Both the position numbers and the translations under genes were made by a program. Shown here in pieces: positions 12,324-26,570 of a stretch of 64,000 nt of DNA. The DNA comes from Minisyncoccota bacterium (GTDB lineage: Bacteria; Patescibacteriota; Minisyncoccia; Phycocordibacterales; SBAW01). Positions within the stretch are counted from its first letter, which is position 1, and the number at the start of each line of letters is the position of its first letter. The stretch covers positions 40,959 to 104,958 of the forward strand of contig DASZWM010000005.1 of NCBI GenBank assembly GCA_035546615.1, given 5' to 3'. Under the pieces are notes generated by a model. It saw only the letters and a program-made list of their open reading frames with translations, ran no database searches and was not told the origin of the DNA.

Positions 12324-12325
12324 TC

Positions 12326-12375
12326 GTCGCTCGCTCGGAAATTAAAGTAAAACTTTATTTCTCTCACTCGCTAGA
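12326..12375 (+). repeat. Dispersed ~50-nt repeat copy R1 (tcggaaattaaagtaaaactttatttctctcactc core with internal hairpin)
   Basis: Near-identical to the reverse complement of 26521-26570 and related to 13302-13350; hairpin gaaattaaagt-aaa-actttatttc; lies ~15 nt upstream of the start of the 12388 ORF. Confidence 0.6.
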
Positions 12376-12387
12376 CTATTAAAAACA

Positions 12388-12717
12388 ATGGAACCAATTA
12401 GCATAGACGATTTCAAAAAGATAGAGATCCGCATCGGAGAGATAAAGAGCGCGGAGAAGATAGAAGGGAGCGACAAGCTCCTGAAGCTTAAGGTTATGTT
12501 CGGCGAAGAAGAGCGTCAGGTGCTTTCCGGCATCTCGGCGTATTTTCCCAACCCGGAGGACTTGGTGGGGAAGAAGTGCCCGTTCGTTACCAACCTGGCG
12601 CCGCGCACCATGATGGGGCTTGAGAGCCAGGCGATGATATTGGCAACCGGCGGCGACGGCGAAACGCCGTTCGCTCTGTTCGAAACCTCGGGCGCTTCCG
12701 GCGCGCGCGTCCGCTAA
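12388..12717 (+). CDS. tRNA-binding protein (CsaA/Trbp111-like; equivalent of the MetRS C-terminal domain)
   Basis: 109-aa ORF; OB-fold tRNA-binding signature (IRIGEIKSAEKIEGSDKLLKLKVMFGEEERQVLSG, CPFVTNLAPRTMMGLESQAMIL). Confidence 0.7.
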   Translation: MEPISIDDFKKIEIRIGEIKSAEKIEGSDKLLKLKVMFGEEERQVLSGISAYFPNPEDLVGKKCPFVTNLAPRTMMGLESQAMILATGGDGETPFALFETSGASGARVR

Positions 12718-12720
12718 TTC

Positions 12721-13311
12721 ATGCTTGAGCGACTGCATGAGTGGAAGGATTCTGCATGGCAGAAATTCATAGTGCTGGCGCAAGGCCCGCATGCGCTCTT
12801 CTGGCTCGGCGTATGCGCGCTGACCGATCCGATATTCTTTCCCATACCGCCGGAGGCATACCTTGCCGCGCTGATCTTGGCTCACCCCAAACGTTTTAAT
12901 CTATATTTGGGTATTGCCGCCGTCTTTTCGGTACTGGGTGCGGCACTCGGCTATTTTGTAGGAGCATTTGTATTCCACCAGTTCGGGATGCCGCTCCTCC
13001 ATTTCTATCACCTGGAGCCCGCATTCCTGCAGGCGCAGGAGCTTATAAAGGGCGGCGTGTTCGTCGGCATGATATTGGTGGCCTTCCAGCTGATTCCGGA
13101 GAAGGTATTCGTGCTCGCGGCGGGCTTCTTGGGAGCGCCGTTCTTTCCGTTTTTAGCGGGATTCCTGGTGGGCCGCGTGGCGCGTCTTGCCCTTATCGCA
13201 TATCTCACGAAACGGTTCGGCGCGGACGTAGTGCTGCTTATAAAGCGGTACTTCCTCGCCGCGACTGTTTTGTTCTTGCTCGCAATAGCGTATTATTTCC
13301 TAGTGAAGTGA
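12721..13311 (+). CDS. DedA/YqaA-family membrane protein
   Basis: 196-aa multi-TM ORF; DPIFFPIPPEAYLAALI motif of SNARE-associated/YqaA proteins. Confidence 0.6.
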   Translation: MLERLHEWKDSAWQKFIVLAQGPHALFWLGVCALTDPIFFPIPPEAYLAALILAHPKRFNLYLGIAAVFSVLGAALGYFVGAFVFHQFGMPLLHFYHLEPAFLQAQELIKGGVFVGMILVAFQLIPEKVFVLAAGFLGAPFFPFLAGFLVGRVARLALIAYLTKRFGADVVLLIKRYFLAATVLFLLAIAYYFLVK

Positions 13312-13350
13312 GTGAAGGAAAGCTCGCTTTATTTCCGAACGAAAGGACGG
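13302..13350 (+). repeat. Dispersed repeat copy R2 (agtgaagtgagtgaa...hairpin...ttccgaacgaaagga)
   Basis: Shares the 15-nt agtgaagtgagtgaa and ttccgaacgaa(a)gga blocks with 26521-26570, with a different central hairpin; overlaps the stop codon of the 12721-13311 gene. Confidence 0.55.
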
Positions 13351-13416
13351 AAATATGAATGTACTCGTTCATATGCTATTGTGCATTTCCGCCTGCTGCT
13401 TTTGTAGGGGGACAAT

Positions 13417-13488
13417 GCCTTCGTAGCTCAACGGATAGAGCCGCGCTCTTCTAAGGCGTTGATGTAGGTTCGATTCCTACCGAAGGCA
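13417..13488 (+). tRNA. tRNA-Arg (anticodon TCT)
   Basis: Acceptor gccttcg/cgaaggc, D-arm gctc-aacggata-gagc, anticodon loop ctTCTaa (stem with two G-U pairs), T-arm tagg-ttcgatt-ccta. Confidence 0.75.
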
Positions 13489-13605
13489 CAAATAGTGCGG
13501 GGCACTATTTGTGAGCCGCAGGCGCGACGGCGCCGAGGCGGGGTCGCGGAAATTTTCAGCAGAAAATTATCTGTGACCAAATAGCGGAGAATAAGATAAC
13601 AGCAC

Positions 13606-13678
13606 GGGCGATTAGCTCAGTTGGTAGAGCAACTCTTTTACACAGAGAAGGTCACAGGTTCGAGTCCTGTATCGCCCA
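13606..13678 (+). tRNA. tRNA-Val (anticodon TAC)
   Basis: Acceptor gggcgat/atcgccc, D-arm gctc-agttggta-gagc, anticodon loop ttTACac, T-arm acagg-ttcgagt-cctgt. Confidence 0.75.
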
Positions 13679-13682
13679 CACT

Positions 13683-14354
13683 ATGGAAGGTCCTGCCAAA
13701 CCCAGTAACAACACTAAGGAAAGCTCTCCTAAGCCTTCTGTTGAAGTTGAATCAGAGTTTGCCGAATTCGTGCCACAGGACTTCCTTAATGACCCTGTAG
13801 GATATTTTGAACGTGGAGGAAAGAATATAAAAACAGGAGAAGTTAAATATGATGAGGCTGGTGCGCTTCGTGAGGATCCAACTGCTGTAAAAGATTTACC
13901 AGTCTGGACGAATAGCAATGGAATAGAAATTCTTACGGTAGGAAGAAGGGTAAATACGATTAAGGGCGCTGTAGGAGAATCAGGAGATCCTTTCTACGAG
14001 TACAAAATCCTTGAGAAGCTTATGGAAATCGGGTTACCCGCTGCGAGGCCTATTGCGAAAGCAGAACAGGGCGGTACTCATATCATTGTCATGGAGCGTA
14101 TTCCGGGGGTTAGGTGGTCTGAAAGAGAAAGTCTGAATCTCAAAGAAAAAGGATACTCTGACGAAGACATTGCAACTCTAATAAGTGAAGCAGAACAGAA
14201 AATGGATGGCCTGAAAACTCGCTTTGACGAAGCGGGAGTTATTCGCAGTTGGAAACTGAAGGATATGGTATTTGAGATAGACATTGAGAATAAGAAAGTT
14301 ATTTCTATAGTCCCCACAGATTGGGAAAGGACGAAGATTATTGAAAAGCAATAG
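13683..14354 (+). CDS. Hypothetical protein, possible small atypical protein-kinase-like fold
   Basis: 223-aa ORF in an AT-rich stretch; motifs in kinase order (EYKILEKLMEIGLPAARPI, hinge-like HIIVMERIPG, then DMVFEIDIENKKVISIVPTDWE) resemble RIO/Kdo-type kinases; weak. Confidence 0.3.
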   Translation: MEGPAKPSNNTKESSPKPSVEVESEFAEFVPQDFLNDPVGYFERGGKNIKTGEVKYDEAGALREDPTAVKDLPVWTNSNGIEILTVGRRVNTIKGAVGESGDPFYEYKILEKLMEIGLPAARPIAKAEQGGTHIIVMERIPGVRWSERESLNLKEKGYSDEDIATLISEAEQKMDGLKTRFDEAGVIRSWKLKDMVFEIDIENKKVISIVPTDWERTKIIEKQ

Positions 14355-14405
14355 AGGTTCTAATATCGTGTACTTCTGACCACAGAAGACGTCTTTATTC
14401 AAGTC

Positions 14406-15140
14406 TTGTGCTATAACACTTCCATGGAGCCGACAGTTATATATGAAGACGATTCCGTTATCGTCGTTAACAAGCCATCGGGCCTGCCTGTGCATGCGGA
14501 CGGACGGCATGACCGCGCCACGCTTGTGGACTGGCTCGCCGTGCACTATCCGGAACTCAAAGGAGTGGGGGAGGAGCAGCGGCTCGCCGACGGCACGATA
14601 ATAGACCGGCCCGGCATCGTGCACCGCATCGACCGCGAGACGTCCGGCGTGCTTGTCGTGGCGCGCACGCAGGCGTCTTTTGAGCATTTAAAGGAGCAGT
14701 TCCAGAACAGGGAAGTGAGAAAGGTGTACCGCGCCTTCGTGTACGGCGCCCTTAAAGACGAGCGCGGCACGATAGACAGGCCGATAGGCTCCTCGCGCGG
14801 AGGCCACGGTCCGCGTTCGGCGACGCGCCCGCACGGTGTCATGCGCGAAGCGCAGACGCTCTACCGCGTCATACATAACGGCAAGGACGCCGCATATGTG
14901 GAGGCGTTTCCGAAAACCGGCCGCACGCACCAGATCCGCGTGCATTTCTCCGCCATTCAGCATCCGATAGTAAATGACACTTTGTATGCGCCCAGCCGCA
15001 AGCCGATACTGGGCTTCACCCGGCTCGCGCTCCACGCGTATTCCATCTCCTTTATCCATCCCGACGGGCGGGAGGTCCTTTTTGAGGCTCCGCTGCCGGC
15101 CGATTTTGCCGAAGCCGAGCGGCAATTGCGGGCTAATTAA
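14406..15140 (+). CDS. RluA-family pseudouridine synthase
   Basis: 244-aa ORF; catalytic motif HRIDRETSGVLVVART, PSGLPVH substrate-binding motif; no N-terminal S4 domain; the start may be the downstream Met (MEPTV). Confidence 0.8.
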   Translation: MCYNTSMEPTVIYEDDSVIVVNKPSGLPVHADGRHDRATLVDWLAVHYPELKGVGEEQRLADGTIIDRPGIVHRIDRETSGVLVVARTQASFEHLKEQFQNREVRKVYRAFVYGALKDERGTIDRPIGSSRGGHGPRSATRPHGVMREAQTLYRVIHNGKDAAYVEAFPKTGRTHQIRVHFSAIQHPIVNDTLYAPSRKPILGFTRLALHAYSISFIHPDGREVLFEAPLPADFAEAERQLRAN

Positions 15141-15172
15141 AGCCGTGTTAGAGTGTTCAGGCATTAAATCAT

Positions 15173-15676
15173 ATGAAATCCGCAGTTAAAATCTCTCCGG
15201 TCGACATGGAAGCCCGCGTAGCCCTTGGGGTGCGTCCGGGCGATACTGTCCGTGTCTGGCAGAAGATAGTCGAGCTCAAGAAGGGCAAGGCAGCCAATAA
15301 GAAGGAGGTGACGACGAAAAATGTCCGCCGCCAGGCCTTTGAGGGCCTCGTGCTCGCGGTTAAGCACGGCTCCGAGGCGGGAGGCATGTTCACGGTCCGC
15401 CGGGTCGCTTCCGGCGTAGGTGTCGAGAAGATTTTCCCGCTCTATTCTCCCAATATCGAATCTATCGAGGTACTGCGCCGCACCCGCACCCGCCGCGCAA
15501 AGCTCTACTTCATCCGCGACAAGGCCGCCCGCGACCAGAAGCGCGCGATGCGCAAGGCCCGCGAGTATGTCGCCCCCGCGGCAGCGGCAGCCGACGCCGA
15601 AGTTCCCGCGGAAGAGCCTGTTGTTGAGGCTCCGGCTGCAGAGGAGGCTGCCGCTCCGGAAGTCGCAGCGGAATAA
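15173..15676 (+). CDS. rplS: 50S ribosomal protein L19
   Basis: 167-aa ORF; bL19 core ([12 protein letters not shown]...[12 protein letters not shown]...FTVRRV...[18 protein letters not shown]) with Ala/Glu-rich C-terminal extension. Confidence 0.85.
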
Positions 15677-15734
15677 GAAAACGAGCTCACGCTCGTTTTT
15701 CGTTTTGGCGTTTTCGTTGTAGGTTTATAGACAT

Positions 15735-15818
15735 GCCCAGGTGGCGAAATTGGTAGACGCACTACCTTGAGGTGGTAGCTCCCGCAAGGGATTGGAGGTT
15801 CGAGTCCTCTCCTGGGCA
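15735..15818 (+). tRNA. tRNA-Leu (anticodon GAG)
   Basis: 84-nt class-II tRNA: acceptor gcccagg/cctgggc, anticodon stem ctacc/ggtag with loop ttGAGgt, long variable arm, T-arm ggagg-ttcgagt-cctct. Confidence 0.8.
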
Positions 15819-15827
15819 CAAAAAAGA

Positions 15828-15866
15828 CAGAATAATCTGCCCTGCGGCAGATTATCTGCTTTTTGT
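15828..15866 (+). terminator. Rho-independent terminator after tRNA-Leu
   Basis: 13-bp hairpin cagaataatctgcc-ctgc-ggcagattatctg followed by cttttt. Confidence 0.7.
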
Positions 15867-16020
15867 GAGCCGGAGCGATGTTTCGCGAGTACGCGAAACC
15901 GCGAGGCAGGGTCGTGCGGCCGCATTCGCGACGGCGAATGCGGAACGCCTGACCAAAAGGATTTGTAGATGTGACGCAGACCCTAGATTAAGGGTATTTC
16001 CGACGGTTCCCACGGAGGTC

Positions 16021-16049
16021 TTGACAAAGTACCCGAAAGGGTATACACT
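16021..16049 (+). promoter_or_regulatory. Sigma70-like promoter (TTGACA-17-TACACT)
   Basis: Consensus -35 TTGACA, 17-nt spacer and -10 tacact (a tatact follows); ~330 nt upstream of the TerC-family gene. Confidence 0.5.
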
Positions 16050-16382
16050 ATACTTAGTTGTGAGGGAGCCAGCCTACGGTGTGTCATCGTGCACCGAAGG
16101 TGGGACCGGAAAGTGGCAACCTCGCGCCGGGACGATCGCAAAAGTCCCTTCTGTTCTTTCAGCGCGGAACGCGCAACGTGGTCTACTGTTTAGATGGTCT
16201 TGGGTCGCGAGGAGGTCAAAAATAACCCGCGACACTGCAAAAGTGATTGGCAATCTCAATCATGAAGGACCGTCACACGTAAGAATGGAAAAACCAAGGT
16301 CCTCGGACCAGTGGCCCCCCAGCACAACTGCATTGACAGTTGAGTGGGGGCCTTTTTACATTCAATGTAGTATTCTGTAACA

Positions 16383-17384
16383 ATGAAACTTTTCATCGCC
16401 CCCATCGTCATTTCGTTCATAGCGCTTATCGCCGTATTCCTGTGGGGCGGTACGGCAGCCCTGCTTCTTGCCGCAACGCTGGCGGTGCTCGAAGTGACGC
16501 TTTCTTTCGACAACGCGGTCGTCAACGCGAAGGTGCTCGAGGAAATGGACGCGCGCTGGCAGCGCAGGTTCCTTACCTGGGGCATCATCCTTTCGGTATT
16601 CGGCACGCGCCTGGTGCTGCCGATACTTATCGTCAGCGCCGTGGCATTTACTTCGCCGTTCACCATTACGACGCTGGCCCTCTACGAGCCCGACCAGTAT
16701 TCTGCGCTTCTTACTTCGGCCGAGGCGGCTATCAAGGCGTTCGGCGGCGCATTCCTGCTCATGGTGTCGCTCAAGTATTTCTTCGACGTCGGCAAGAGCG
16801 TGCACTGGTTCGCGCCGCTTGAGCGCCGCTTGTCGCGGTGGGGAAGGGTGGAGGCGATTGAGATCGCTTTGGCGCTCGCCATGCTGCTCGGCATCTCCTA
16901 CGTGTCGCACGACTCGGTTGAGACGATACTCCATGCCGGCATTATCGGCATCATCCTCTTTACGCTGACGGAAGGCATCGCGCACGGCCTCGGGGTGGAA
17001 ACCAAAGGCGCGGTCCGCTCGGGCCTCATGCTCTTCGTCTATCTCAATATCCTCGACTCGGCCTTTTCTCTGGACGGCGTCATCGGCGCGTTCGCGCTCA
17101 CGACCTCGCTCCCGATAATCGTGGCGGGCCTTGGCATCGGCGCGTATTTCGTCCGCTCGCTCACGGTCTACCTGGTACGACAGAAGACGCTTGCGGCGTT
17201 GAAGTACCTGGAGCACGGCGCGCACTGGGCGATATTCGGCCTGGCGCTCTCGATGTTCGCCGGCCTGATAATCCGCGTGCCGGAAGTGGTGATAGCGGGC
17301 ATTGGGCTCGGCTTCATCACGCTTGCGTACATTTCGTCCCGCCGCGCCCTGCGCGCGGACGAAGTGGCCGAGTCGCTCGGCTAG
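16383..17384 (+). CDS. TerC/DUF475-family integral membrane protein
   Basis: 333-aa multi-TM ORF; LSFDNAVVNA motif (TerC-family LSxDNA), repeated internal halves. Confidence 0.7.
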   Translation: MKLFIAPIVISFIALIAVFLWGGTAALLLAATLAVLEVTLSFDNAVVNAKVLEEMDARWQRRFLTWGIILSVFGTRLVLPILIVSAVAFTSPFTITTLALYEPDQYSALLTSAEAAIKAFGGAFLLMVSLKYFFDVGKSVHWFAPLERRLSRWGRVEAIEIALALAMLLGISYVSHDSVETILHAGIIGIILFTLTEGIAHGLGVETKGAVRSGLMLFVYLNILDSAFSLDGVIGAFALTTSLPIIVAGLGIGAYFVRSLTVYLVRQKTLAALKYLEHGAHWAIFGLALSMFAGLIIRVPEVVIAGIGLGFITLAYISSRRALRADEVAESLG

Positions 17385-17428
17385 CCTCATCGCTTCTCCT
17401 TTGGTATATTGACTTCGTTGTTCGATAT

Positions 17429-17502
17429 GGTGGTCGTAGCTCAATCGGTAGAGCCCTGGTTTGTGGTACCAGTTGTTGTGGGTTCGAGTCCCATCGACCA
17501 CC
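17429..17502 (+). tRNA. tRNA-His (anticodon GTG) with genomically encoded G-1
   Basis: Acceptor gtggtcg/cgaccac, extra 5' G (17429) opposite discriminator C, anticodon stem ctggt/accag with loop ttGTGgt, T-arm gtggg-ttcgagt-cccat. Confidence 0.8.
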
Positions 17503-17506
17503 CAAG

Positions 17507-18040
17507 ATGGAGGAATTTAAAAAATCTAAGGAAGCCGCGACAAGGAGCCTCAACCTTGCCGGCACTTTGCAGAAGCTTTTTCGCCCTGTCCTGATTAAAG
17601 GCATGGAGGGCGAAAAAACAGAGGATCCGATAGCTCGAGTAATAGCGGAAGCAGGCCCTAAAAACCTAAGCGATATAGAATCGTATCTTACAGCGCAGAG
17701 CATTGATGCCCTTGCTCCTCTTGAGCACGGCTATGGCTTTAGTGCCGTAGTGCTTGACGCAGGCGATCGGGTGGTGCGCTTAAGCAGACTGAAGCCTACG
17801 CATAAACCCGGTATTCCCCTTGTCCTCCAGCCTCTTGCGGAGGAAATAGTGGGAAAAATTTCTGTGCAGATCTTCAAAAAGCTTCAGACGGCGGGAATTA
17901 CGGACGCCGATGTACAGAATGTTAAGGACCAATTGGGGATGGAAGGGTATAGGTGGGATGACGCCGGTACCGACAACCTTGGGCGGGACGAGAACGGCCA
18001 ACTTTTTATACTCGACGGTTCGGTGCATACACTCGCATGA
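17507..18040 (+). CDS. Hypothetical protein, possible small kinase-like fold
   Basis: 177-aa ORF starting 4 nt after tRNA-His; YGFSAVVLDAGDRVVRLSRL (Gly-loop and Lys-like) ... DAGTDNLGRDENGQLFILDGS (D..N catalytic-loop-like and DFG-like) in kinase order; weak. Confidence 0.3.
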   Translation: MEEFKKSKEAATRSLNLAGTLQKLFRPVLIKGMEGEKTEDPIARVIAEAGPKNLSDIESYLTAQSIDALAPLEHGYGFSAVVLDAGDRVVRLSRLKPTHKPGIPLVLQPLAEEIVGKISVQIFKKLQTAGITDADVQNVKDQLGMEGYRWDDAGTDNLGRDENGQLFILDGSVHTLA

Positions 18041-19236
18041 GCAATGCTCCCATAACCTTCGTTATCTTCGGCGCCACGGGCGATCTGGCTCAGCGCAAGA
18101 TAGTGCCCGCGCTCTGCGCGCTGTACGCAAGCGGGGCGCTTCCTGAAGGCTCAGATATAGTCGCTTTTTCGCGCCGGCCGTGGGGCGACGCGGAGTATCG
18201 CTCCTTCATACAGCCCTCCCTCAAGGCTTTTCCGGAAGAAAAGGCGGTTAAATTCCTGGAGCGTATCCGCTATGTGCAAGGTACGTTCGGCGATCCCGCA
18301 TCGTTCGCTGCATTGAAAGATGCATTACGCACGCAGAATATCTTCTTCCACCTCGCAGTCCAGCCTGAGTTTTACGAATCCATCGTGCATGGGCTGGGGG
18401 ATGCGGGCTTGCAGGGCTCGCTCCTTATCGAGAAGCCGTTCGGCCACAACTACGCCTCCGCCGCATCGCTTGAGCGAGGTCTTGAGAAGTACTTTTCGCC
18501 CGAGCATATTTTCCGCGTCGATCATTACTTGGGGAAGGAAGGACTCGAGGTGCTTCTGAATCGCCGCCGCACGGATGCCGATTTTGAAAAGTCACTAAGC
18601 AGCGAGCGCATCGCGTCCGTCGCGGTCCGCCTGCTTGAGACGTTCGACGTAGAGGGTAGGGGAGAGTTCTACGACGCGGCGGGCGCGCTTAAGGACGTGG
18701 GCCAAAATCATCTGCTTGAGATGCTCGCGACACTTCTTATGAATATTCCGGAAGATGCTCGCGGCATTCCGCAGGCGCGCGCTGAAGCGATAGCGGGACT
18801 GGCCCCGAAGATGTCCGTTCAGGGGGCGGTGGCTGCCGTGCGCGGCCAATACGAGGGGTACCATGCCGATCCGGAAATTCCGGACGGCTCGCAAACGGAA
18901 ACGTATTTTAAAGTCGAATTGCGCAGCGCAATTCCGCGCTGGCAGGATGTCCCGCTCGTGCTTGAAGCGGGGAAAGCCCTGCGCGAAAAGAAAAGCGATA
19001 TCGAGATCTCATATAAGGACGGCTCGAAGCAGGTATTCGACATGGATATCCCCGGCGCGCGCGACGCATACGAGCACATGATAGAAGCGGCACTGCGCGG
19101 CGACGCGACGCGCTTTGCCGGAAGCGAAGAAGTGTTCGCCGCGTGGAAGCTTATCGACCCGCTGCGGGAGCAGCTCCTGAAATTGCCGCTTCACAGGTAC
19201 GACCGCGGCGGCGACGGCGCGGGGCGGTTTTTGTAA
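18037..19236 (+). CDS. zwf: Glucose-6-phosphate 1-dehydrogenase (short form)
   Basis: 399-aa ORF; NADP-binding FVIFGATGDLAQRKIVPAL, substrate motifs EKPFGHNYASA and RVDHYLGKE. Confidence 0.8.
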   Translation: MSNAPITFVIFGATGDLAQRKIVPALCALYASGALPEGSDIVAFSRRPWGDAEYRSFIQPSLKAFPEEKAVKFLERIRYVQGTFGDPASFAALKDALRTQNIFFHLAVQPEFYESIVHGLGDAGLQGSLLIEKPFGHNYASAASLERGLEKYFSPEHIFRVDHYLGKEGLEVLLNRRRTDADFEKSLSSERIASVAVRLLETFDVEGRGEFYDAAGALKDVGQNHLLEMLATLLMNIPEDARGIPQARAEAIAGLAPKMSVQGAVAAVRGQYEGYHADPEIPDGSQTETYFKVELRSAIPRWQDVPLVLEAGKALREKKSDIEISYKDGSKQVFDMDIPGARDAYEHMIEAALRGDATRFAGSEEVFAAWKLIDPLREQLLKLPLHRYDRGGDGAGRFL

Positions 19237-19253: not shown

Positions 19254-19661
19254 ATGCCTATGCTGCCGAAGCCCAAAACCAAGCTTGAAGAGATAGCGCT
19301 CGGCTTTACCAGCTGGGTAGGGTCCATCCAGTCGGTCGCGGTGCATACCGTCGCCTTCGTCGCGAGCTTCCTGGCGGTGGCGTTCGACCTCATTACCTTC
19401 GACCGGATGCTCCTCGTGCTCACCACCGTAGTGTCGCTTGAAGCAATTTATCTCGCCATATTCATACAGATGAGCCTCAACCTGACGCGCGAAAGCCTGG
19501 CGGAGGTTGAGCAGGACATAGACGAGATCCAGGAGGACGTGGGCGAAATTCAGGAGGATGTCGACGAGATACAGCAGGACGTCGATGAGATCCAGGAAGA
19601 CGTTGACGAGATACAGGAGGAAATAGTAGAAGAGGAGGATGGAGAATCGGCGCATGCTTAA
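19254..19661 (+). CDS. Membrane protein (DUF1003-like) with acidic heptad-repeat tail
   Basis: 135-aa ORF; two TM helices, then five tandem 7-aa repeats D[IV][DG]EIQ[EQ]. Confidence 0.5.
   Translation: MPMLPKPKTKLEEIALGFTSWVGSIQSVAVHTVAFVASFLAVAFDLITFDRMLLVLTTVVSLEAIYLAIFIQMSLNLTRESLAEVEQDIDEIQEDVGEIQEDVDEIQQDVDEIQEDVDEIQEEIVEEEDGESAHA
19515..19619 (+). repeat. 5 x 21-nt tandem repeat (coding DIDEIQE heptads)
   Basis: gacatagacgagatccaggag / gacgtgggcgaaattcaggag / gatgtcgacgagatacagcag / gacgtcgatgagatccaggaa / gacgttgacgagatacaggag. Confidence 0.7.
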
Positions 19662-20079
19662 GGAAAAGGTCGGCGGCTTTTTTTCGGAGTTCAGGAACTT
19701 CGCCGTCAAAGGCAACGCCTTCGACCTCGCGGTCGCGGTCGTCATCGGCAACGCCTTTACCGCCATCGTGAACTCGCTCGTGGGCGACATCATCACCCCC
19801 TTCCTCGGGCTCGTGACCGGGAATGTTGACTTCAAGAGCCTCTCGTATGCGGTCCGGCCCGACCTCGTCATAAAATACGGCGCGTTCATCCAGGCGATAT
19901 TCAATTTCCTGCTCATTTCGCTGTCGATATTCGTCGTTTTCAAGCTGCTCTCGGTCGCGCGCAGAAAGGTCTTCCGCGAAGGGGAGAAGGCGGTGCCGGA
20001 GCACGAAAAGCCCGCTCAGGAGCGCCTCCTTGAGGAGATCCGCGACCTTTTGAAGGAAAAGAAGGAGGAAGTGGTATAG
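19639..20079 (+). CDS. mscL: Large-conductance mechanosensitive channel MscL
   Basis: 146-aa ORF; FREFAVKGNAFDLAVAVVIGNAF signature; the start is probably the downstream Met (MLKEK). Confidence 0.85.
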   Translation: MENRRMLKEKVGGFFSEFRNFAVKGNAFDLAVAVVIGNAFTAIVNSLVGDIITPFLGLVTGNVDFKSLSYAVRPDLVIKYGAFIQAIFNFLLISLSIFVVFKLLSVARRKVFREGEKAVPEHEKPAQERLLEEIRDLLKEKKEEVV

Positions 20080-20086
20080 TTAGCGC

Positions 20087-20776
20087 ATGCCTGACATAAA
20101 AAAGTTCGAGCTTTCTCCCTCGATAGCCATACTCGTGTGCGGCGTGCTCATCGCCGGCTCGATTATTTTCGTGAATCTCCATCCCGGCCAGCCCGCGGTT
20201 GCCGCAGACCCGAATCAGCTTCCGGCGAATGCCAACGTGCCGGCGCCGAACGCCAACGACCACATCCGCGGCTCATTGAGCGCGCCCATTGTGCTGGTCG
20301 AGTATTCGGACTTCCAATGTCCGTATTGCCAGATGGTGCATCCGACGCTCAAGCGCCTTGTGGACGAATCCAACGGCAAGATAGCGTGGGTATACCGCGA
20401 GTATCCGCTCACGAGTCTCCACCCGCAGGCCCGCCCCGCAGCGCTCGCCGCCGAATGCATCGAGGAGCAGCTCGGCAATGACGGGTTCTGGAAGTTCGCC
20501 GACACCATATTCGCCGACCAGACCAAAATGAGCCCCGAGTACTATGCCCAGCTTGCCGCGCAGTTCGGCGCGGACCCGGCGCAGTTCGCCTCGTGCGTCT
20601 CGAGCGAGAAATATGCGGGGAAGATAGCGTCGCAGTCGCTTGAGGCGCAAAGCAACGGCGGCAACGGCACGCCGTTCACGGTCATCGTGGGTGCAGGCGT
20701 GCAGGTGCCGGTGTCGGGCGCGCAGCCGTACGAGAACTTCAAGGCTGTAATAGACGCGATGCTCGCGCGTCAGTAA
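20087..20776 (+). CDS. DsbA-family thiol:disulfide oxidoreductase (membrane-anchored)
   Basis: 229-aa ORF; N-terminal TM; thioredoxin-fold CPYC active site in VEYSDFQCPYCQ. Confidence 0.8.
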   Translation: MPDIKKFELSPSIAILVCGVLIAGSIIFVNLHPGQPAVAADPNQLPANANVPAPNANDHIRGSLSAPIVLVEYSDFQCPYCQMVHPTLKRLVDESNGKIAWVYREYPLTSLHPQARPAALAAECIEEQLGNDGFWKFADTIFADQTKMSPEYYAQLAAQFGADPAQFASCVSSEKYAGKIASQSLEAQSNGGNGTPFTVIVGAGVQVPVSGAQPYENFKAVIDAMLARQ

Positions 20777-20819
20777 CAGGATAGCTATTAGTTATTAATG
20801 TTTTTTATAATCACTACGT

Positions 20820-21662
20820 ATGAACGGCTTGTTTGAGGGTTCTCAGGGCGTGTGGCTTAGGCGCGCCATTATCGCGTCGGTAGCATTGCTTGCTTTGTTC
20901 CTGGCGGTCCAGGTCATCGCCGGCGTTAAGGAATGGCGCTACATAGGCGCTGGGCTTTCCGCCACCAACACCATTACCGTATCCGGCCACGGCGAGGCGC
21001 TCGCGGTGCCCGACATTGCAACGTTCTCGTTCTCGGTCGTCTCCGACAAGGCGACGGTCGCCGCCGCGCAGGAAGACGCGACTGCAAAGATCAACGCAAT
21101 AACCGCGTATCTTAAGGATGCGGGCATCGACGAGAAGGATATCCAGACCAGCGACTACTCGGTCTATCCGCAGTACGAATACCAGAACGCGGTATGTCCC
21201 ACCGTCGCGCCGACCTATTCGGGAGCTTCGGCAAGCGCTATCTACTGCCCGTCCGGCAAGCAGGTGCTCAAGGGCTACGAGGTGCGCCAGACCACCGCTA
21301 TCAAGGTGCGCGATACCGAGAAGGCGGGCGATCTCCTCTCCGGCGTAGGAACCAAGGGCGCCACCGAGGTTTCGGGCCTGACATTCACGTTCGACAAGCC
21401 CGATATGGTTCAGGATGAGGCCCGCGATAAGGCTATCCAGAACGCGAAGGAGAAGGCGGATACGCTCGCGAAGTCCCTCGGCGTCCACCTGGTGCGCGTC
21501 GTCTCCTACAACGAGAACGGCAACTACTCGCCGATGTACGCCCGCGACGTGGCGTACGGCAGCGCAGGCCTCGCCAACGAAACCAAGGCTGCCGCTCCGG
21601 AGATCTCCATAGGCCAGAACAAGGTCACCTCGGATGTCGCGGTAACCTACGAGATTAGGTAA
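20820..21662 (+). CDS. SIMPL-domain protein (DUF541/BP26-like)
   Basis: 280-aa ORF; N-terminal TM; the rest fits the SIMPL/BP26 family (assignment from recall, not a motif match). Confidence 0.65.
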   Translation: MNGLFEGSQGVWLRRAIIASVALLALFLAVQVIAGVKEWRYIGAGLSATNTITVSGHGEALAVPDIATFSFSVVSDKATVAAAQEDATAKINAITAYLKDAGIDEKDIQTSDYSVYPQYEYQNAVCPTVAPTYSGASASAIYCPSGKQVLKGYEVRQTTAIKVRDTEKAGDLLSGVGTKGATEVSGLTFTFDKPDMVQDEARDKAIQNAKEKADTLAKSLGVHLVRVVSYNENGNYSPMYARDVAYGSAGLANETKAAAPEISIGQNKVTSDVAVTYEIR

Positions 21663-21807
21663 GCCTATGCAGAGCTAGGTAAGCCTAGGGTTGACTCCAG
21701 CCTTAAATAGGGTAGTATAAGAAAAAGCCCCGGGAGGGGTTTTTTCTTAGGCAACCGTCTTGCCTGTCGGCAGACAGGGAAGACGGAAAGTTAAATAGAA
21801 CTAAATT

Positions 21808-21978
21808 ATGCCCCAATACTTTAAAGACGTCCGCAGCGAGCTGAACCATGTAAGCTGGCCCACGCGCAGTCAGATAATCGCGTATACCGTCGTGGTCATT
21901 CTCGTGTCGCTCGGCACGTCCGTGTACCTCGGGCTTCTGGACTACGTCTTCTCCGCGATTATCCGCAGCGTTGTTTAG
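21808..21978 (+). CDS. secE: Preprotein translocase subunit SecE
   Basis: 56-aa ORF below the ORF-track cutoff: MPQYFKDVRSELNHVSWPTRSQIIAYTVVVILVSLGTSVYLGLLDYVFSAIIRSVV, single TM; immediately upstream of nusG in the conserved secE-nusG-rplK order. Confidence 0.8.
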   Translation: MPQYFKDVRSELNHVSWPTRSQIIAYTVVVILVSLGTSVYLGLLDYVFSAIIRSVV

Positions 21979-22039
21979 TAATTAGCTACTTGGGTGTAGC
22001 CACTAGTCGCTATACCCCAAACCCTAACACCTAACTAAT

Positions 22040-22591
22040 ATGGCAAAACAAGATGCAAGCGTCGGAAGGGCATGGTACGCGATACACACGTACGCGGGCT
22101 ACGAGAACGCGGTCGCGCGCAACCTGCGCCAGCGCATCGAGAGCCTCGGCCTCACCGATAAGATATTCCAGGTGGTCGTGCCGACCGAGCGCACGGTAAA
22201 GATAAAGGGCGGCAAGCGCGTGGAGGAAGAGGAGAAGGTGTATCCGGGCTACGTGCTCGTCGAGATGACCGTGGACGACCAGTCATGGTACGTGGTGCGC
22301 AATACGCCCCGCGTGACCGGCTTCGTGGGCTCCGGCGTCAATCCGGTCCCGCTCCAGCAGAAGGAAGTGGACGAGCTCTTGGGCCGCATGCAGGCGACCG
22401 AAGGCTCCATCAAGCACGCCATCGACCTTTCGGTGGGCGACTCGGTCGTCATCGTGGACGGTCCGTTCAAAGAGCTCGACGGCAAGGTGGGCGAGGTGGA
22501 CGAGGCCCGCGGCAAGGTGAAGGTTCTCGTGCCGATGTTCGGCCGCGAGACGCCGGTGGAACTCGACTTCCTTCAAATTAAGCGTATATAG
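22040..22591 (+). CDS. nusG: Transcription antitermination factor NusG
   Basis: 183-aa ORF; NGN domain (WYAIHTYAGYENAV) and C-terminal KOW (GDSVVIVDGPFKELDGKVGEVD). Confidence 0.9.
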   Translation: MAKQDASVGRAWYAIHTYAGYENAVARNLRQRIESLGLTDKIFQVVVPTERTVKIKGGKRVEEEEKVYPGYVLVEMTVDDQSWYVVRNTPRVTGFVGSGVNPVPLQQKEVDELLGRMQATEGSIKHAIDLSVGDSVVIVDGPFKELDGKVGEVDEARGKVKVLVPMFGRETPVELDFLQIKRI

Positions 22592-22631
22592 CCAAAAACA
22601 ATAAACTAAGGTATTCTCTTAATCTCGATAT

Positions 22632-23054
22632 ATGGCAAAGAAAATCGTTAAAAAGATAAAGATCATCGCGAACGGCGGCGCCGCGGCGATGACCCCTGCC
22701 ATGGGCCAGGTGCTCGGCCCGGCCGGCATCAACATCGGCGAATTCATCAAGAAGTTCAACGACGCATCCAAGGAGATGCGCGGCGACATGGTACCGGCAG
22801 AGATCTCCGTCTACGAGGACCGCTCATACGATTTCATCCTCAAAACCCCGCCGGTATCGAGCCTCATCCTTAAGGCCCTCGGCAAGGAGAAGGGGAGCGG
22901 CAAGCCCAATACCCAGAAGGTAGGCGCGCTCACGAAGGCCCAGGTAAAGGAAATCGCAGAGAAGAAGATGCCCGACCTCAATGCCCACGACCTCGACCAG
23001 GCAATGAAGACCGTCGCCGGCTCCGCCCGGAGCATGGGCGTTGATATGAAGTAA
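22632..23054 (+). CDS. rplK: 50S ribosomal protein L11
   Basis: 140-aa ORF; uL11 signatures PAMGQVLGPAGINIGEF, ISVYEDRSYDFILKTPP. Confidence 0.9.
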   Translation: MAKKIVKKIKIIANGGAAAMTPAMGQVLGPAGINIGEFIKKFNDASKEMRGDMVPAEISVYEDRSYDFILKTPPVSSLILKALGKEKGSGKPNTQKVGALTKAQVKEIAEKKMPDLNAHDLDQAMKTVAGSARSMGVDMK

Positions 23055-23081
23055 GATAATTGGTAACTTTCAACCCACCTT

Positions 23082-23111
23082 GCCTGTTTTCTTTAGGGAA
23101 CAGGCATTTTT
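23082..23111 (+). terminator. Rho-independent terminator directly after rplK
   Basis: Hairpin gcctgtt-ttctttagggaa-caggc followed by attttt; sits where rplA normally follows. Confidence 0.6.
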
Positions 23112-23135
23112 GGTTCTTCGACAAGGAGGCATATC

Positions 23136-23549
23136 ATGCTGGAAGAAGGGAAGACTTTTGTTACTTTTGCGCAGATCCATTTTTCTACTCAAGGAGGCGG
23201 TCAGCTCAATCTTGCGGAGATTGAGGAAAAATTCCGTGCCATCCTCGCAGAAGAACCCTCTCGTTGGGAAGTGGAGTGGTTAAGGGCAGAAGACGCTACC
23301 GCAGGCGGCCTGCGCATGTCTTTCGCGCTTACAGATGCGGCGATCCTCTACTTCGGTTGTCGTTCCGGTAGCGAGCGCGATATTTCCATCCAGGAAATAT
23401 CATGTCTCATGGATTGGGTTGGGAGTATAACTAAGAAATTCTCCGAAGCCGAGTTCAAGTTTGGACTGCCGGTATTCGTGAGCGGTGGAGTCCAACTCAA
23501 CAGCAGCACAGGCGCTTACGCAACTAAAGCTTTTTCTGCCACCATATAG
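23136..23549 (+). CDS. Hypothetical protein
   Basis: 137-aa ORF with an aaggagg RBS 7 nt upstream; no recognisable motifs; followed by a terminator hairpin at 23564-23596. Confidence 0.45.
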   Translation: MLEEGKTFVTFAQIHFSTQGGGQLNLAEIEEKFRAILAEEPSRWEVEWLRAEDATAGGLRMSFALTDAAILYFGCRSGSERDISIQEISCLMDWVGSITKKFSEAEFKFGLPVFVSGGVQLNSSTGAYATKAFSATI

Positions 23550-23658
23550 GGATCTAAGAAAAAGCCCGGCGCCAAAGGTGCCGGGTACTGCTTTTCATTT
23601 GGAACGGCAAGGAGTACTCTGGGCGTCAGAGATCCTTTCGGCTAGCACAGGAGTTCCC

Positions 23659-24363
23659 ATGAAGCCCAACGTCTCTCTTCCTACCTGGATTCAGGACTTG
23701 ATGGTGACGTGGGTCCGGCCCCAAGTCACTCTCCGCAAAGTGGTGCGGTGGAGCAAATACCGCAAGCGCGGCACGCGCCGCCAAGACACGCTCCAGCACA
23801 CGCTCTCGCTTCTCTTGTTCGCAACGTGGGCGTTCCCGCTTTTCAGGCCCCATGTGCGGTTCGACGAATCGCTGCTCTTCCGTACCCTTTTGCTCCACGA
23901 CTTCGGGGAGGGGGAAACGCAGAAGGGCGACACCCTTTACATCGACAAGACGCGCGGCGGCGACCTGGCGGAAACCGCGGCGTTCATGGAACGGTTCGGC
24001 ATCGTTATCGGCCAGGAAGGCACTAAGGCCTTTCTTCTCCAGTTCGCGAAAAACGCGAACCAGATGGGCGAATTCAGAAGCATTCTGCAGGGGATTAAGA
24101 AGAAATACCCCGTCGAATGCCTGCTGTTCGACGCCCTGGAGCGCTTCGACTACTTTCTCTACGCTCTCGAGCAGTATCGGGAACTTGGGAAGGCGAAGAT
24201 CCTGGTGCAGGTGTTGCGCCATCAGATACCGCACTTCGAGCGTCTGTCACGCGAGCTGCCCGGCTTCAAACAGGTGCTCTGGCGGCCCGACTTGGCCGGC
24301 TGGTGCTCGCTGTTCCTCAGCCGCTACGACGGTCAGTGGATCGAGCAGAAGGGCGAAAAGTGA
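23659..24363 (+). CDS. HD-domain phosphohydrolase (YfbR-like) (putative)
   Basis: The ORF track gives 23485-24363, but that start overlaps the upstream ORF and the terminator; the likely start is MKPNVSL at 23659 with an aggag RBS; HD motif in LLLHDFGEGETQKGD. Confidence 0.45.
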   Translation: MKPNVSLPTWIQDLMVTWVRPQVTLRKVVRWSKYRKRGTRRQDTLQHTLSLLLFATWAFPLFRPHVRFDESLLFRTLLLHDFGEGETQKGDTLYIDKTRGGDLAETAAFMERFGIVIGQEGTKAFLLQFAKNANQMGEFRSILQGIKKKYPVECLLFDALERFDYFLYALEQYRELGKAKILVQVLRHQIPHFERLSRELPGFKQVLWRPDLAGWCSLFLSRYDGQWIEQKGEK

Positions 24364-24366
24364 ACC

Positions 24367-24408
24367 AATATCGCCCGTCCCGGAACCCGGGACGGGCGAT
24401 ATTTTTTA
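24367..24408. terminator. Bidirectional terminator between convergent genes
   Basis: 16-bp perfect hairpin atatcgcccgtcccgg-aac-ccgggacgggcgatat followed by tttttt. Confidence 0.75.
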
Positions 24409-26520
24409 GACGGCTGCAACAGGATTTCTTTCGACGATATCCTGGGTGCCGCGCTTGTAGTTGAAGCGGTCTTCGCTTGAGTCTATGTGGAGTATTAATC
24501 CTTCGCTCTTCAATTCCCGAAGCATAAGCGCGCCGATGTTCTGGGAAATAACGCGGAGCGTTGGATGTACGGAAATGCCCGAACGCAGCTCGACGACAAA
24601 GGCTAGCGCGGGCAGGTCGCCGGTAATGCGGCAGGCAACCTGGTATCCCATCGGGACATAATACTGGGCTAGGGTAGGGGACAGATTCAGCCTCTCGAGG
24701 CCTGCAACGTAGCGGGCGAGAAAAGCTTTCGCCTCGTCCGCGAGCTGTTGCGGTACCTGGCTGAAGTACCATTCGCCGAACCCGTGCTTCGTCGTCAGAA
24801 GCGGCATCCGCTGGGTGATGGAACGATGCCGGTGCAGGTCGCGGAACGAGCCGAAGTCGAGCGGAAACGAGAACTGCATCCCTCCGGCTTCCGCAAGGAA
24901 TTTCGGCAGCTCCGCTTTTGCGGGGCGGCTGTCCAGGATATGGCGATGCTTCTGGAGCAGTCGCGGTTCCACGGTATTCCGCAGCAGAAGAACATTTCCG
25001 TATCCGGCCTTCGAGCCATTAAGGGTCGGTTCTGCTTCAGCGGAATAGTAGTACGCATTCTGCATCCACTCTTCGACGTATTCTTCCTGTGCAGAGTAGC
25101 GCTTAGCGAAGCCGGAATTCGGATACTTCTCCATTAGCGCTTCGCCCACCGCATTTGCGATATCGCGCACTTCTGCAAGCGGATGATGGCGCAGGCGCAG
25201 GAGATGGTCGGAAGCGTGCCGCAGCTCGGTATGCCACGCGAGGTTCGTTGCGGCGCCGGCAGGCAGGAATCCCCGCATGATATCGAACGCGCGGGCATTG
25301 ATGGCCTTCTGCCAAACCTTCTCGTCCTCATCAGTTTGGCGCGGATGGCGCTTGGCGAGCTCTTCCTTCATGGTTTCGAGCCCATTCAGATGGAATGCGC
25401 GCAGCGATTCAAGGAGCTCTGCGCCCTCTGGGGAGTTGTGCGGATTGCCGAACGCCTGTTTGGAGAAGTCGATGTAACGAGTCGAGGATTCCTGCCCATT
25501 GTAGAGCTGGGAGTCTTGTACCGCTTTCGCCGCGAGCATCGACACTCCTTCTATAAAGATGGTCGCCGTGCCGTCATCGCCGATGGATTTGTCGCCGTAA
25601 CCGACATAGTAGGTCTGCATGAAATCTTGGGCGCCCCGCTTGGCAAGCCTGATCAGGTGCGCATCTATGCCGCCCAGGGAGCGCGAATGAAGTGCTTGAA
25701 GCATTGCATCTTCCTCAGCATTGATGATAGCGCCGGTGTCGAGTACGACTACCTGCCCGTTTCCTGGGAGCGGCTTGCGTACGTGTTTCAGGTCTTCGTA
25801 TTTTGTAGCAGTTCCTTTTTGTACTTGTTCCTGCGCGGGTGCGGCGCGTTGTCCGATGTCGCGATCAAGGTAGAGGCGGGGGAGCATCTGCTCAGGGGTC
25901 CAGCTGCTTTTTACCTCTTCAAGGTTCGTGCTGACCTGATATTTGCCGCTCTTGGTGTAATCGGACTGTAGAATAGGCCCGGTCTCGAAGAAGATGATCT
26001 GCGCGATGCGGCGGCCGACCACAAGCGGAATGATGTAATTCTTGGAGTTGTTGGTTATCTCCATCGTCCAGCGGTTGACGTATCCGACGTCGCCCCAGCC
26101 GGCACATTTGCACACTTCTATGAAGTTGCGGCCCATGCTTGAGCGCGCCTTCATCATCGTCGTGATATGGTCGCGCCCGCCGATGAACTCGTTCGTATGC
26201 GCGAGGATGGTTTCGCCGGGCCGCAGGATGATGACCTTGTCCTCCGGGCTGATGCCGTCCCACTCAAAGTTATATTTTTCGAACGCTTCCTTCGCGGGTA
26301 CCGCCCGCTCCACCTTAGAGGCGCCCCACACATGCTCCATGTGCGCGCGGCTCCAGATGTTGTAGAGGCTGTGATTGTACTTGGTCGGCTGCTCGCGGAA
26401 GAAATGCTCCCCGAGCGTCACGTCGTAGGAAGAAGTGGCAAGATTTTCCCGCTTGAACGGCTCTATAATGACGGAGCCTTCCTGCATCGCTTCGAGGATT
26501 TTCTTGTCCGATAGTGCCAT
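24406..26520 (-). CDS. Fusion protein: dCTP deaminase-like domain + two tandem ThyX (flavin-dependent thymidylate synthase) domains
   Basis: 704-aa ORF. Residues 1-190 are Dcd/dUTPase-fold (LSDKKILEAMQEGSVIIEP; KARSSMGRNFIEV...GWGDVGYVNRWTMEITNNS). Residues ~230-480 are ThyX-like and keep the S.RY motif (ESSTRYIDF) but have QDSQ in place of RHR. Residues ~480-704 are ThyX-like with the RHR motif (FRDLHRHRSITQ) but no S.RY. Both halves keep the ThyX C-terminal helix pattern (AR..LP....T..W..N.R.L.HFL.LR). Confidence 0.6.
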   Translation of the reverse strand: MALSDKKILEAMQEGSVIIEPFKRENLATSSYDVTLGEHFFREQPTKYNHSLYNIWSRAHMEHVWGASKVERAVPAKEAFEKYNFEWDGISPEDKVIILRPGETILAHTNEFIGGRDHITTMMKARSSMGRNFIEVCKCAGWGDVGYVNRWTMEITNNSKNYIIPLVVGRRIAQIIFFETGPILQSDYTKSGKYQVSTNLEEVKSSWTPEQMLPRLYLDRDIGQRAAPAQEQVQKGTATKYEDLKHVRKPLPGNGQVVVLDTGAIINAEEDAMLQALHSRSLGGIDAHLIRLAKRGAQDFMQTYYVGYGDKSIGDDGTATIFIEGVSMLAAKAVQDSQLYNGQESSTRYIDFSKQAFGNPHNSPEGAELLESLRAFHLNGLETMKEELAKRHPRQTDEDEKVWQKAINARAFDIMRGFLPAGAATNLAWHTELRHASDHLLRLRHHPLAEVRDIANAVGEALMEKYPNSGFAKRYSAQEEYVEEWMQNAYYYSAEAEPTLNGSKAGYGNVLLLRNTVEPRLLQKHRHILDSRPAKAELPKFLAEAGGMQFSFPLDFGSFRDLHRHRSITQRMPLLTTKHGFGEWYFSQVPQQLADEAKAFLARYVAGLERLNLSPTLAQYYVPMGYQVACRITGDLPALAFVVELRSGISVHPTLRVISQNIGALMLRELKSEGLILHIDSSEDRFNYKRGTQDIVERNPVAAV

Positions 26521-26570
26521 AATCGAGTGAAGTGAGTGAAATAAAGTTTACTTTAATTCCGAACGAAGGA
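26521..26570 (-). repeat. Dispersed repeat copy R3 in the leader between the divergent dcd-thyX and tmk genes
   Basis: aatcgagtgaagtgagtgaaataaagtttactttaattccgaacgaagga. Its reverse complement matches 12326-12375 over ~35 nt, in the same orientation relative to the downstream start codon. Confidence 0.6.

Follow-up and report, generated by a model that had tools for sequence, protein, structure and literature searches.

The window analysed here, a stretch of 64,000 nucleotides from a Minisyncoccota bacterium (contig DASZWM010000005.1 of assembly GCA_035546615.1), contains three short related repeats at the edges of genes, which we call R1, R2 and R3. The first two belong to one gene cluster with the order ruvX, R1, a tRNA_bind (CsaA-like) gene, a VTT/YqaA-like gene, R2, tRNA-Arg and tRNA-Val; R3 sits between the divergent genes dcd-thyX (minus strand) and tmk. 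An initial annotation of the window had placed copies of about 50 nt at 12326-12375, 13302-13350 and 26521-26570, two of them ahead of the CsaA-like gene and of dcd-thyX, divergent from tmk, and one over a stop codon. All three are present there and in the gene context described, but the units are longer than noted, 75 bp in this genome and 69-83 bp elsewhere, and include two parts that had been missed, a copy-specific flanking inverted repeat of 6-7 bp and a second hairpin. We think it probable that all three belong to a non-autonomous insertion element that forms hairpins and whose family spans the Patescibacteria and has relatives in rumen Prevotella/Bacteroidaceae. The forward strand of the element is the plus strand for R2 and R3 and the minus strand for R1, and the parts of the three copies are as follows.

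About 12302-12376, minus strand: element R1, an older, diverged copy with approximate limits; covariance model score 45.0 bits.
12320-12379, minus strand: hairpin A and outer stem of R1.
12300-12321: remnant of hairpin B of R1, today coding for the final residues of RuvX and the stop codon.
12359-12368 and 12331-12340, both minus strand: core blocks of R1, AGTGAGAGAA and TTCCGAGCGA.
13297-13371, plus strand: full 75-nt insert R2, within the YqaA/VTT-like gene at its 3' end; covariance model score 46.9 bits.
13294-13296: first TAT of the R2 duplication, also the outer 3 nt of stem P1 (from the comparison of empty and filled sites).
13372-13374: second TAT of the R2 duplication, also closing the stem of hairpin B (from the same comparison).
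13307-13316, plus strand: left core block of R2, AGTGAGTGAA; the TGA at 13309-13311 is the stop codon of the shortened gene.
13333-13342, plus strand: right core block of R2, TTCCGAACGA.
13353-13374, plus strand: hairpin B of R2, ATATGAA-tgtactcg-TTCATAT (from sequence reading and DNA and RNA folds).
26522-26596, plus strand: full 75-nt insert R3, separating the dcd-thyX start codon from its upstream region; covariance model score 55.9 bits.
Up to 26577, plus strand: hairpin A of R3.
26580-26594, plus strand: hairpin B of R3, AATTGC-GAA-GCAATT.
26519-26521: gene-side TAT of the R3 duplication, TAT on the minus strand; the dcd-thyX ATG is 26520-26518.
26597-26599: distal TAT of the R3 duplication, ATA on the plus and TAT on the minus strand.
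26531-26540, plus strand: left core block of R3, AGTGAGTGAA.
26557-26566, plus strand: right core block of R3, TTCCGAACGA.

Each unit runs from one arm of an outer stem, P1, through a short junction, the left block AGTGAGTGAA, an inner hairpin, P2, the right block TTCCGAACGA and a second junction to the other P1 arm, and then ends in hairpin B. P1 has 6-7 bp whose sequence differs from copy to copy (ATAGTC/GACTAT in R1, TATTTCC/GGAAATA in R2, ATAATC/GATTAT in R3), and P2 is an AT-rich hairpin of about 10 bp with free sequence. R2 and R3 have an exact 15-mer, AGTGAAGTGAGTGAA, in common and are 86% identical across 42 ungapped nt (repeat family D13); with up to three mismatches the 15-mer occurs five times in the window against 0.79 expected, a count reached in none of 100 shuffles. 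R1 is the same element on the opposite strand with two substitutions in its blocks (AGCGA-GTGAGAGAA and TTCCGAGCGAGCGA), so the sharing of blocks that had been claimed for all three copies is exact in R2 and R3 and only approximate in R1. The near-identity of R1 and R3 over the central ~35 nt was confirmed, and their P2 hairpins are almost identical. From a reading of its flanks, the duplication around R1 is no longer exact (AAT/TAT or ATA/ATT), and this and the core substitutions mark R1 as older than the other two. The inserts R2 and R3 start with TTCCTAG... and ATCGAG... and end in ...CGTTCA and ...CAATTCT, respectively; these ends are neither inverted repeats of each other nor common to both copies.

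That these units have been inserted is seen by comparison with relatives that keep the glyA-tmk / dcd-thyX and ruvX-csaA-yqaA synteny. All three copies are absent from the orthologous syntenic sites of close relatives, and our covariance model finds no copy in the 92 kb of relatives' loci that were fetched. At R3, the closest relative (L130, 77% amino acid identity, with the same dcd-thyX fusion) reads CTATACCG TAT GGCGCTATCGG, and the reverse strand of the window reads CTATACCG TAT (75 nt) TAT GGCACTATCGG; the site is empty in four relatives (L130, L122, L123 and L125), and the duplicated TAT includes the A and T of the dcd-thyX start codon. At R2, three relatives (L127, L128 and L129) have an uninterrupted GCGTAT TAT GCTATTGTGC inside the YqaA-like open reading frame (ORF), which in the window has become GCGTAT TAT (75 nt) TAT GCTATTGTGC, the 78 extra nt being the 75-nt unit plus one TAT. 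The insert shortens this ORF to 196 amino acids, compared with 202 in most homologues, and the new stop codon is the TGA of the left block. At R1, the ruvX-csaA spacer measures 64 nt in the window and 9-13 nt in L127 and L129, and the RuvX C terminus diverges straight after ...LDR. R2 and R3 are therefore two clean cases of an exact 75-nt insertion with a 3-bp TAT duplication. Because the relatives lack the copies and the sites show exact inserts with duplicated TAT, we regard the element as an insertion element and not as a conserved leader. The conserved regulatory leader offered in the initial annotation is not supported as the primary explanation, since the element is absent at the same genes in relatives, occurs in both orientations and in one copy truncates a coding region; its alternative of a small mobile or REP-like (repetitive extragenic palindromic) element stands as regards mobility, on the strength of the empty sites, the 75-nt inserts and the TAT duplication, but not as regards likeness to REPs, as there is neither a GTAG/CGTC tag nor a single 20-40 nt palindrome. 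Near R2, a 16-nt stretch just upstream of tRNA-Arg (13400-13415, TTTTGTAGGGGGACAA) is also absent in L127-L129 and thus represents a second small indel at this locus.

The element is not confined to this genome. The exact pattern AGTGAGTGAA-N18-24-TTCCGAACGA, scanned across one genome per species for 185,579 species, matches at least 120 loci, compared with about 8 expected by chance according to our own calculation (596 Gb x 2 strands x 7 spacings / 4^20). Further copies, whose absence would have made the similarity look accidental, are clearly present in other genomes. The listed matches, with taxa taken from record titles, are mostly Patescibacteria (Paceibacterota, Moraniibacteriota, Magasanikbacteria, Saccharibacteria, Uhr-, Sung-, Taylor- and Peribacteria, Minisyncoccia), and about 25 of them are rumen Prevotella/Bacteroidaceae genomes; some metagenome-assembled genomes are titled Bdellovibrionales or Gammaproteobacteria, yet carry the same element subtypes. 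In nearly every match, an 18-24 nt hairpin of its own sequence separates the blocks and the flanks form a P1 of their own sequence. Overall, 18 to more than 40 bp separate the blocks, and what lies between them is in every case palindromic with compensatory changes. Tandem arrays, whose periods are 72-86 nt, and truncated copies at the tails of arrays also occur; no long element was found to lie between two cores, solo cores being such truncated tails. The 20 core nucleotides are nearly invariant across very distant phyla, an impression inflated by the choice of the 120 loci by exact cores, which overstates core conservation.

A covariance model built from 74 copies, mainly from other genomes and with the three window copies in the seed alignment, ranks R3, R2 and R1 at the scores given above and the next best site of the 64 kb at 10 bits, the scores of the window copies being partly so by construction. 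It adds about 16 copies without exact cores within the other loci. Two weak matches in the window, at 28588-28659 and 52558-52614 (both minus strand; 9-10 bits, E 1-2), could be badly decayed relatives or chance; the former, at the 3' end of glyA, reads AAGTGA...CGAACGAG between TCTGGA/TCCGGA arms.

The fold itself is supported by covariation, counted over 13 consensus pairs (P2 and the core pairs, P1 excluded) in 131 distinct sequences: 93% of the cells pair compared with 78% in shuffles, and double-sided changes number 225 compared with 57, values that none of 500 shuffles reached. Even the core pair G21-C50 is swapped for U-A or A-U in variant copies. P1, for its part, has at least six of seven Watson-Crick pairs in 68% of the copies, but in only 10% when an arm is matched with the flank of another copy. 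RNAalifold pairs the two blocks as G-C, U-A, [G.A, A.G], G-C, bulged U, G-C, A-U, A-U, a model in which the purine-rich blocks would face each other in tandem G.A pairs. A K-turn or box C/D-like fold was rejected, as the U16/G15 register is no better than a continuous helix and the junctions are heterogeneous. The repeats in the junctions (GCG..GCG, ATG..ATG) were likewise discarded as target duplications; partial pairing is the better account of these repeats, the true duplication being located outside P1.

Which molecule is read in this folded form? A structure selected on one RNA strand normally gives a clear excess of G-U pairs. At internal stem positions, G-T and A-C occur 16 and 17 times in P1 and 6 and 3 times in P2, and no G-T excess over A-C emerges after splitting the copies by transcription direction either. 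Together with the mixed orientation, the insertion signature and the lack of inverted termini, this favours a folded single strand of DNA. An enzyme acting in trans would probably read the core of a folded single strand, most likely DNA, because the stems vary yet pair, the unpaired core is fixed and terminal inverted repeats are lacking. Integration duplicates the TAT triplet, as the two clean cases show, and copies are found at the few sites that a compact genome can tolerate, namely T-ATG start codons, positions immediately ahead of tRNA 5' ends and the final codons of genes.

These three contexts (start codons, tRNA 5' ends and gene 3' ends) recur across the 120 loci, in which genes were called crudely as longest ORFs. 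The neighbouring genes are otherwise diverse and none recurs beside the element; a cognate neighbour gene was accordingly dismissed, the 956 ORFs of these loci clustering into housekeeping families only (translation GTPases, ABC ATPases). Relative to the two neighbours, the orientation is opposite/opposite in 38 loci, same/same in 27, opposite/same in 24 and same/opposite in 12. At tRNA genes, the 5' end lies 0 or 4 nt from the reverse core, and the first tRNA nucleotides reappear, inverted, in the far P1 arm. At the 3' ends of several ORFs, the stop codon is the TGA of the forward core, as it is at R2.

The tightest geometry is found at start codons. Copies that abut a start, at T-ATG sites, always have one orientation and are spaced so that the core is followed after exactly 10 nt by the ATG; in the subtype with a cgaaatg/atga junction, the real gene start lies exactly 10 nt past the reverse core, inside P1. 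Such genes include infB, rplX, rpmJ, rpmA, frr, tpiA, mnmA, ftsA, rpsN, rplE and dcd-thyX, where R3 has this same 10-nt spacing, and no Shine-Dalgarno sequence was seen at the start-codon genes that carry the element. The two similarly oriented gene leaders of the initial annotation thus reflect a real regularity, a shared sense strand and a 10-nt spacing to the ATG. The fixed orientation suggests either targeting or selection for a usable leader. In the latter case, copies at starts would survive only if their transcribed strand finishes with the pyrimidine-rich ...UUCACUCACU followed by 10 nt and AUG, an orientation in which the insert would be a tolerable 5' leader or would supply its own -10-like box in a P1 arm. 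A mini-ORF through the element coupled to the downstream start was rejected as not general, since it stops within P2 in several copies.

Transcription in this organism gives such insertions a particular setting. Of 46 window ORFs, 10 have a TAnnnT box that stops exactly 6 nt short of the start codon, often with GG in front of the box (ggTATACT, ggTATAGT, ggTATAAT; for example at the ORFs at 9294, 20084, 36528 and 44972), and few ORFs have a clear Shine-Dalgarno sequence; for these reasons the letters suggest that leaderless or near-leaderless mRNAs are widespread here. An insert on a start codon would then give a leaderless-type gene a leader of about 55-80 nt. Of 130 copies of the element, 35 have such a box ending 6-7 nt ahead of the forward core and 56 have one ending 3-6 nt ahead of the reverse core, compared with about three at each other offset, and R1 (TATAGT) and R3 (TATAAT) have it 6 nt before the reverse core, so the element may bring its own transcription start site in a -10-like P1 arm. 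A consensus scan found no sigma-70 promoter with a -35 box, and no terminator-like site was found, at any of the three window copies.

Two copies from different genomes (L030 and L047) lie between rplN and rplX. This led us to collect 80 rplX loci from metagenomes, chosen on protein similarity alone, for a search with the covariance model. The rplN-rplX spacer holds a copy in three of the 80 loci (L132, which is the L030 genome, L142 and, degenerate, L152), and closer relatives of the carriers (66-73% identity) are without it. Four further copies lie directly before other ribosomal-protein genes. In all seven the same strand of the element is the sense strand, and in the six full-scoring ones the ATG is exactly 10 nt past the core. 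Other palindromic inserts, unrelated in sequence, occupy the same rplN-rplX spacer in L133/L135, L138 and L140, just upstream of position 1501 (477 in L135), with GTCATTGCGAGG..., GTCATTCCC...GGGAATGAC and GAACTGCGAAC repeats, and the ruvX-csaA spacer of L128 (2590-2660) holds a different palindrome, GACGAAACTTCC...GGAAGTTTCGTC. As unrelated palindromes occupy the same spacers, several families of hairpin inserts colonise the same few permissive spots in these compact genomes.

How else could these repeats be explained? That three AT-rich intergenic regions resemble each other by coincidence finds some backing in the right block, which taken alone has 3 matches with up to three mismatches against 2.3 expected. 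An exact 15-mer found twice, the 86% match of R2 and R3 over 42 nt, at least 120 structured matches in other genomes and covariance model scores of 45-56 bits compared with 10 bits at the best other site speak against it; we consider coincidence refuted by the pattern scan, the scores and the covariation test, and give it practically no credence. A serious competitor, though in our view an unlikely one, is a structured RNA module used by the host, either a signal between cistrons for processing or stability (an RNase III-type site or a small ribozyme) or a Shine-Dalgarno-independent translation leader, whose spread would be secondary. Here the transcript of the reverse complement would fold, an RNase or the ribosome would read the internal loop, and the AUG 10 nt further on would be exposed or made by processing. 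The fixed core-ATG distance and orientation at infB, rplX, rpmJ, rpmA, frr, tpiA, rpsN, rplE and dcd-thyX without a Shine-Dalgarno sequence would agree with such a module, as would the single sense strand of the seven copies in the unbiased ribosomal-operon loci, the ability of the core to form a regular helix with tandem G.A pairs, its conservation across phyla and the abutment to tRNA 5' ends at 0 or 4 nt. However, absence from the same genes in close relatives means that the element is not needed for their expression, the overall orientation to neighbours is mixed, neither stem has a G-U excess over A-C even when transcription direction is considered, the G.A-rich fold lies on the antisense strand of the start-codon copies, and no Rfam family is found even at E = 10. 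The remaining candidate is a regulatory cassette of double-stranded DNA, that is, a portable promoter or protein-binding site in which the blocks are half-sites joined by cruciform extrusion or the AT-rich P1 arms are paired, inward-facing -10 boxes. The placement of TAnnnT before both cores, including the boxes of R1 and R3, the host's -10 boxes 6 nt before starts and the stems without strand asymmetry agree with it. Yet the palindrome between the blocks, always compensated although the block spacing varies between 18 and more than 40 bp, is something that a protein binding duplex DNA would not need, and many of the P1 arms do not resemble a -10 box (GC-rich where derived from tRNA sequence, or TTACC/GGTAA). 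Copies also sit inside operons and in one coding region, and the three window sites lack a sigma-70 consensus promoter. We consider the cassette less probable still than the RNA module.

The insertion element that we prefer has weaknesses of its own. Terminal inverted repeats are missing, the about 1.2 Mb examined yielded neither an autonomous parent nor a neighbour resembling a transposase, and there is no match in IMG/VR, on which ground an association with phages was discarded. The clean TAT duplication is documented for two copies, in the survey of the other loci, repeated 3-mers at the distance expected show no more than a noisy enrichment, and the step through single-stranded DNA is one that we infer. 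The near-invariance of the core exceeds what is usual for a selfish repeat and suggests constraint, and the fixed orientation and 10-nt spacing, even in essential ribosomal-protein operons, fit a host RNA function as well as they fit a filter by selection. A bolder reading is that the family is moved by a structure-reading mechanism of a kind not described so far: an enzyme conserved across Patescibacteria would recognise the purine-rich G.A loop and integrate the element at TAT, and the element may double as a portable Shine-Dalgarno-independent leader or processing signal (...UUCACUCACU-N10-AUG) that colonises even essential ribosomal-protein operons. We offer it as speculation that is more likely wrong than right; if true, the element would count both as mobile DNA of a new kind and as a factor that shapes gene expression widely, yet unrecognised, in bacteria of the Candidate Phyla Radiation (CPR).

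We would also like to place the element into the context of known small repeats and structured RNAs. No Rfam 15 family matches at gathering thresholds in the whole window or in 32 loci, nothing relevant appears at E <=10 for the three sites, and literature searches by sequence string and by topic (Patescibacteria combined with RNA motif, MITE, REP, leaderless or palindromic) returned no description. Miniature inverted-repeat transposable elements (MITEs), among them the Correia elements (NEMIS) of Neisseria, have terminal inverted repeats taken from a transposase-encoding insertion sequence (IS), duplicate TA and are confined to one genus. Like a MITE, which is non-coding, dispersed and shorter than about 300 bp, the element consists of 75-nt non-coding units, present in three copies in the 64 kb and at 120 or more loci elsewhere, with TAT duplicated at R2 and R3 and empty sites in three and four relatives, respectively; the conserved terminal inverted repeats that define a MITE are missing from the R2 and R3 inserts, and no partner element encoding a transposase is found among the 956 ORFs of the 120 loci, which are pieces of genomes. 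The likeness to Correia elements extends to small size, dispersal, hairpin formation, a short AT-type duplication, positions beside gene starts and ends, co-transcription, presence/absence polymorphism and, in principle, the supply of promoter-like boxes or RNase sites. In contrast to them, both stems are free in sequence, the core of 10+10 nt is internal and asymmetric, the duplication is TAT, and the hosts span many phylum-level lineages of Patescibacteria.

REPs are single GC-rich palindromes of 20-40 nt with a GTAG or CGTC head, uniform within a genome and moved by a REP-associated tyrosine transposase (RAYT), an IS200/IS605-like Y1/HUH enzyme whose gene REPs usually flank; IS200/IS605 relatives have subterminal hairpins, insert 3' of a fixed short target and produce no target duplication. 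With REPs, BIMEs and REPINs the element would share recognition of a folded strand, and it resembles them in hairpin shape that counts over sequence, in dispersed and tandem copies and in the lack of an internal transposase. It differs in its AT-rich stems that vary between copies of one genome, in the absence of GTAG and in the TAT at both ends; the CGTC in R1 and R2 is there by chance position. No RAYT or Y1 gene lies near any copy in the window or the 8-kb pieces of other genomes, and the two hairpins that might recall IS200/IS605 ends are present but not alike, with no TnpA seen. The TAT found at the two junctions may be a duplication or, alternatively, a target together with a TAT that ends the element. 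Rickettsia palindromic elements, the GC clusters of yeast mitochondria and the double-hairpin elements of Allomyces mitochondrial DNA are restricted to their lineages and unrelated in sequence, and short duplicated target triplets have been reported for some GC clusters. These are likewise tiny single or double hairpins without a known enzyme in spacers and coding ends of compact genomes, but lack the cross-phylum core and the fixed start-codon geometry. RNase III signals of the phage T7 type are irregular intercistronic hairpins of about 60 nt with a conserved internal loop and a fixed, strand-specific position, whereas our element is insertionally polymorphic and has no strand-specific wobble signal. 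Further candidates were rejected outright: an intrinsic (Rho-independent) terminator for the AT-rich stems without a following T run, and an integron attC site for the absence of the R''/R' motifs RYYYAAC ... GTTRRRY from the ends of R2 and R3. TIGR-Tas arrays consist of alternating edge and loop repeats of 8-12 nt with 9-nt spacers, in long arrays beside a Nop-domain Tas gene (PMC12045711); the variable parts of our element are self-complementary, its copies are mostly solitary and no neighbour gene recurs, and this candidate was also dropped. What sets the element apart is an invariant, asymmetric core within stems of free sequence, together with the TAT duplication, the double hairpin, radiation-wide spread and precise start-codon geometry.

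Several observations were made alongside. In the tmk / dcd-thyX intergenic region, a 7-nt inverted repeat with arms 15 nt apart (26601-26629, GGTATAG ... CTATACC) is kept in the empty sites of L130 and L123 and was parted from the dcd-thyX start codon by the R3 insert; it is a possible, NrdR-box-like operator for these genes of dTTP synthesis. The dcd-thyX gene itself (24406-26520) is a fused ORF of 704 amino acids in the window and in L130, and in more distant relatives dcd and thyX are separate neighbours. Elsewhere in the window, a free-standing HNH endonuclease ORF (10661-11155, minus strand; Pfam HNH, E = 6.6e-7) overlaps tRNA-Ser (10588-10675, minus strand) by 15 nt at its 3' end. A 1281-codon ORF (4749-8594) has many GGC-rich, glycine-coding low-complexity repeats (families D2, D5, D6, D10 and D18), and five to six tandem 21-nt repeats at 19503-19642 (family D1), encoding an acidic EIQEDV-like heptad, lie within the span of a 424-codon ORF (17962-19236, continuing). 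The 5' part of a 23S rRNA gene (62835-64000) runs off the window end. In other genomes, a perfect parS-like palindrome, TGTTTCACGTGAAACA, directly follows one copy (L052, about 5120-5140) and a DnaA-box-like TTATCCACA lies near copies in L117 and L020, for which reason some copies may be close to the origin. Loci of the Moraniibacteriota type (L055, L058, L097, L060, L107 and L002) have a conserved multi-hairpin region downstream of the element (AAAGTTTAATACC - CGCGG-CTTG-CCGCG - CCAGGG-TTTG-CCCTGG - GGTATTAATACTTT) that has no Rfam match and may be another structured repeat or RNA.

With their tiny and gene-dense genomes, Patescibacteria are thought to harbour little mobile DNA. A hairpin insert found again and again across the radiation shows that CPR genomes are colonised by small structured elements. 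For annotation, such an insert matters in that it truncates or extends ORFs, lengthens the spacers of ribosomal operons and mimics conserved regulatory motifs, and its presence/absence polymorphism makes it a possible strain marker in metagenomes. The invariant core with its free stems offers a clear way into the search for an enzyme or RNA-binding factor reading this core, and the start-codon geometry offers a direct test of how genes are expressed without a Shine-Dalgarno sequence in these organisms.

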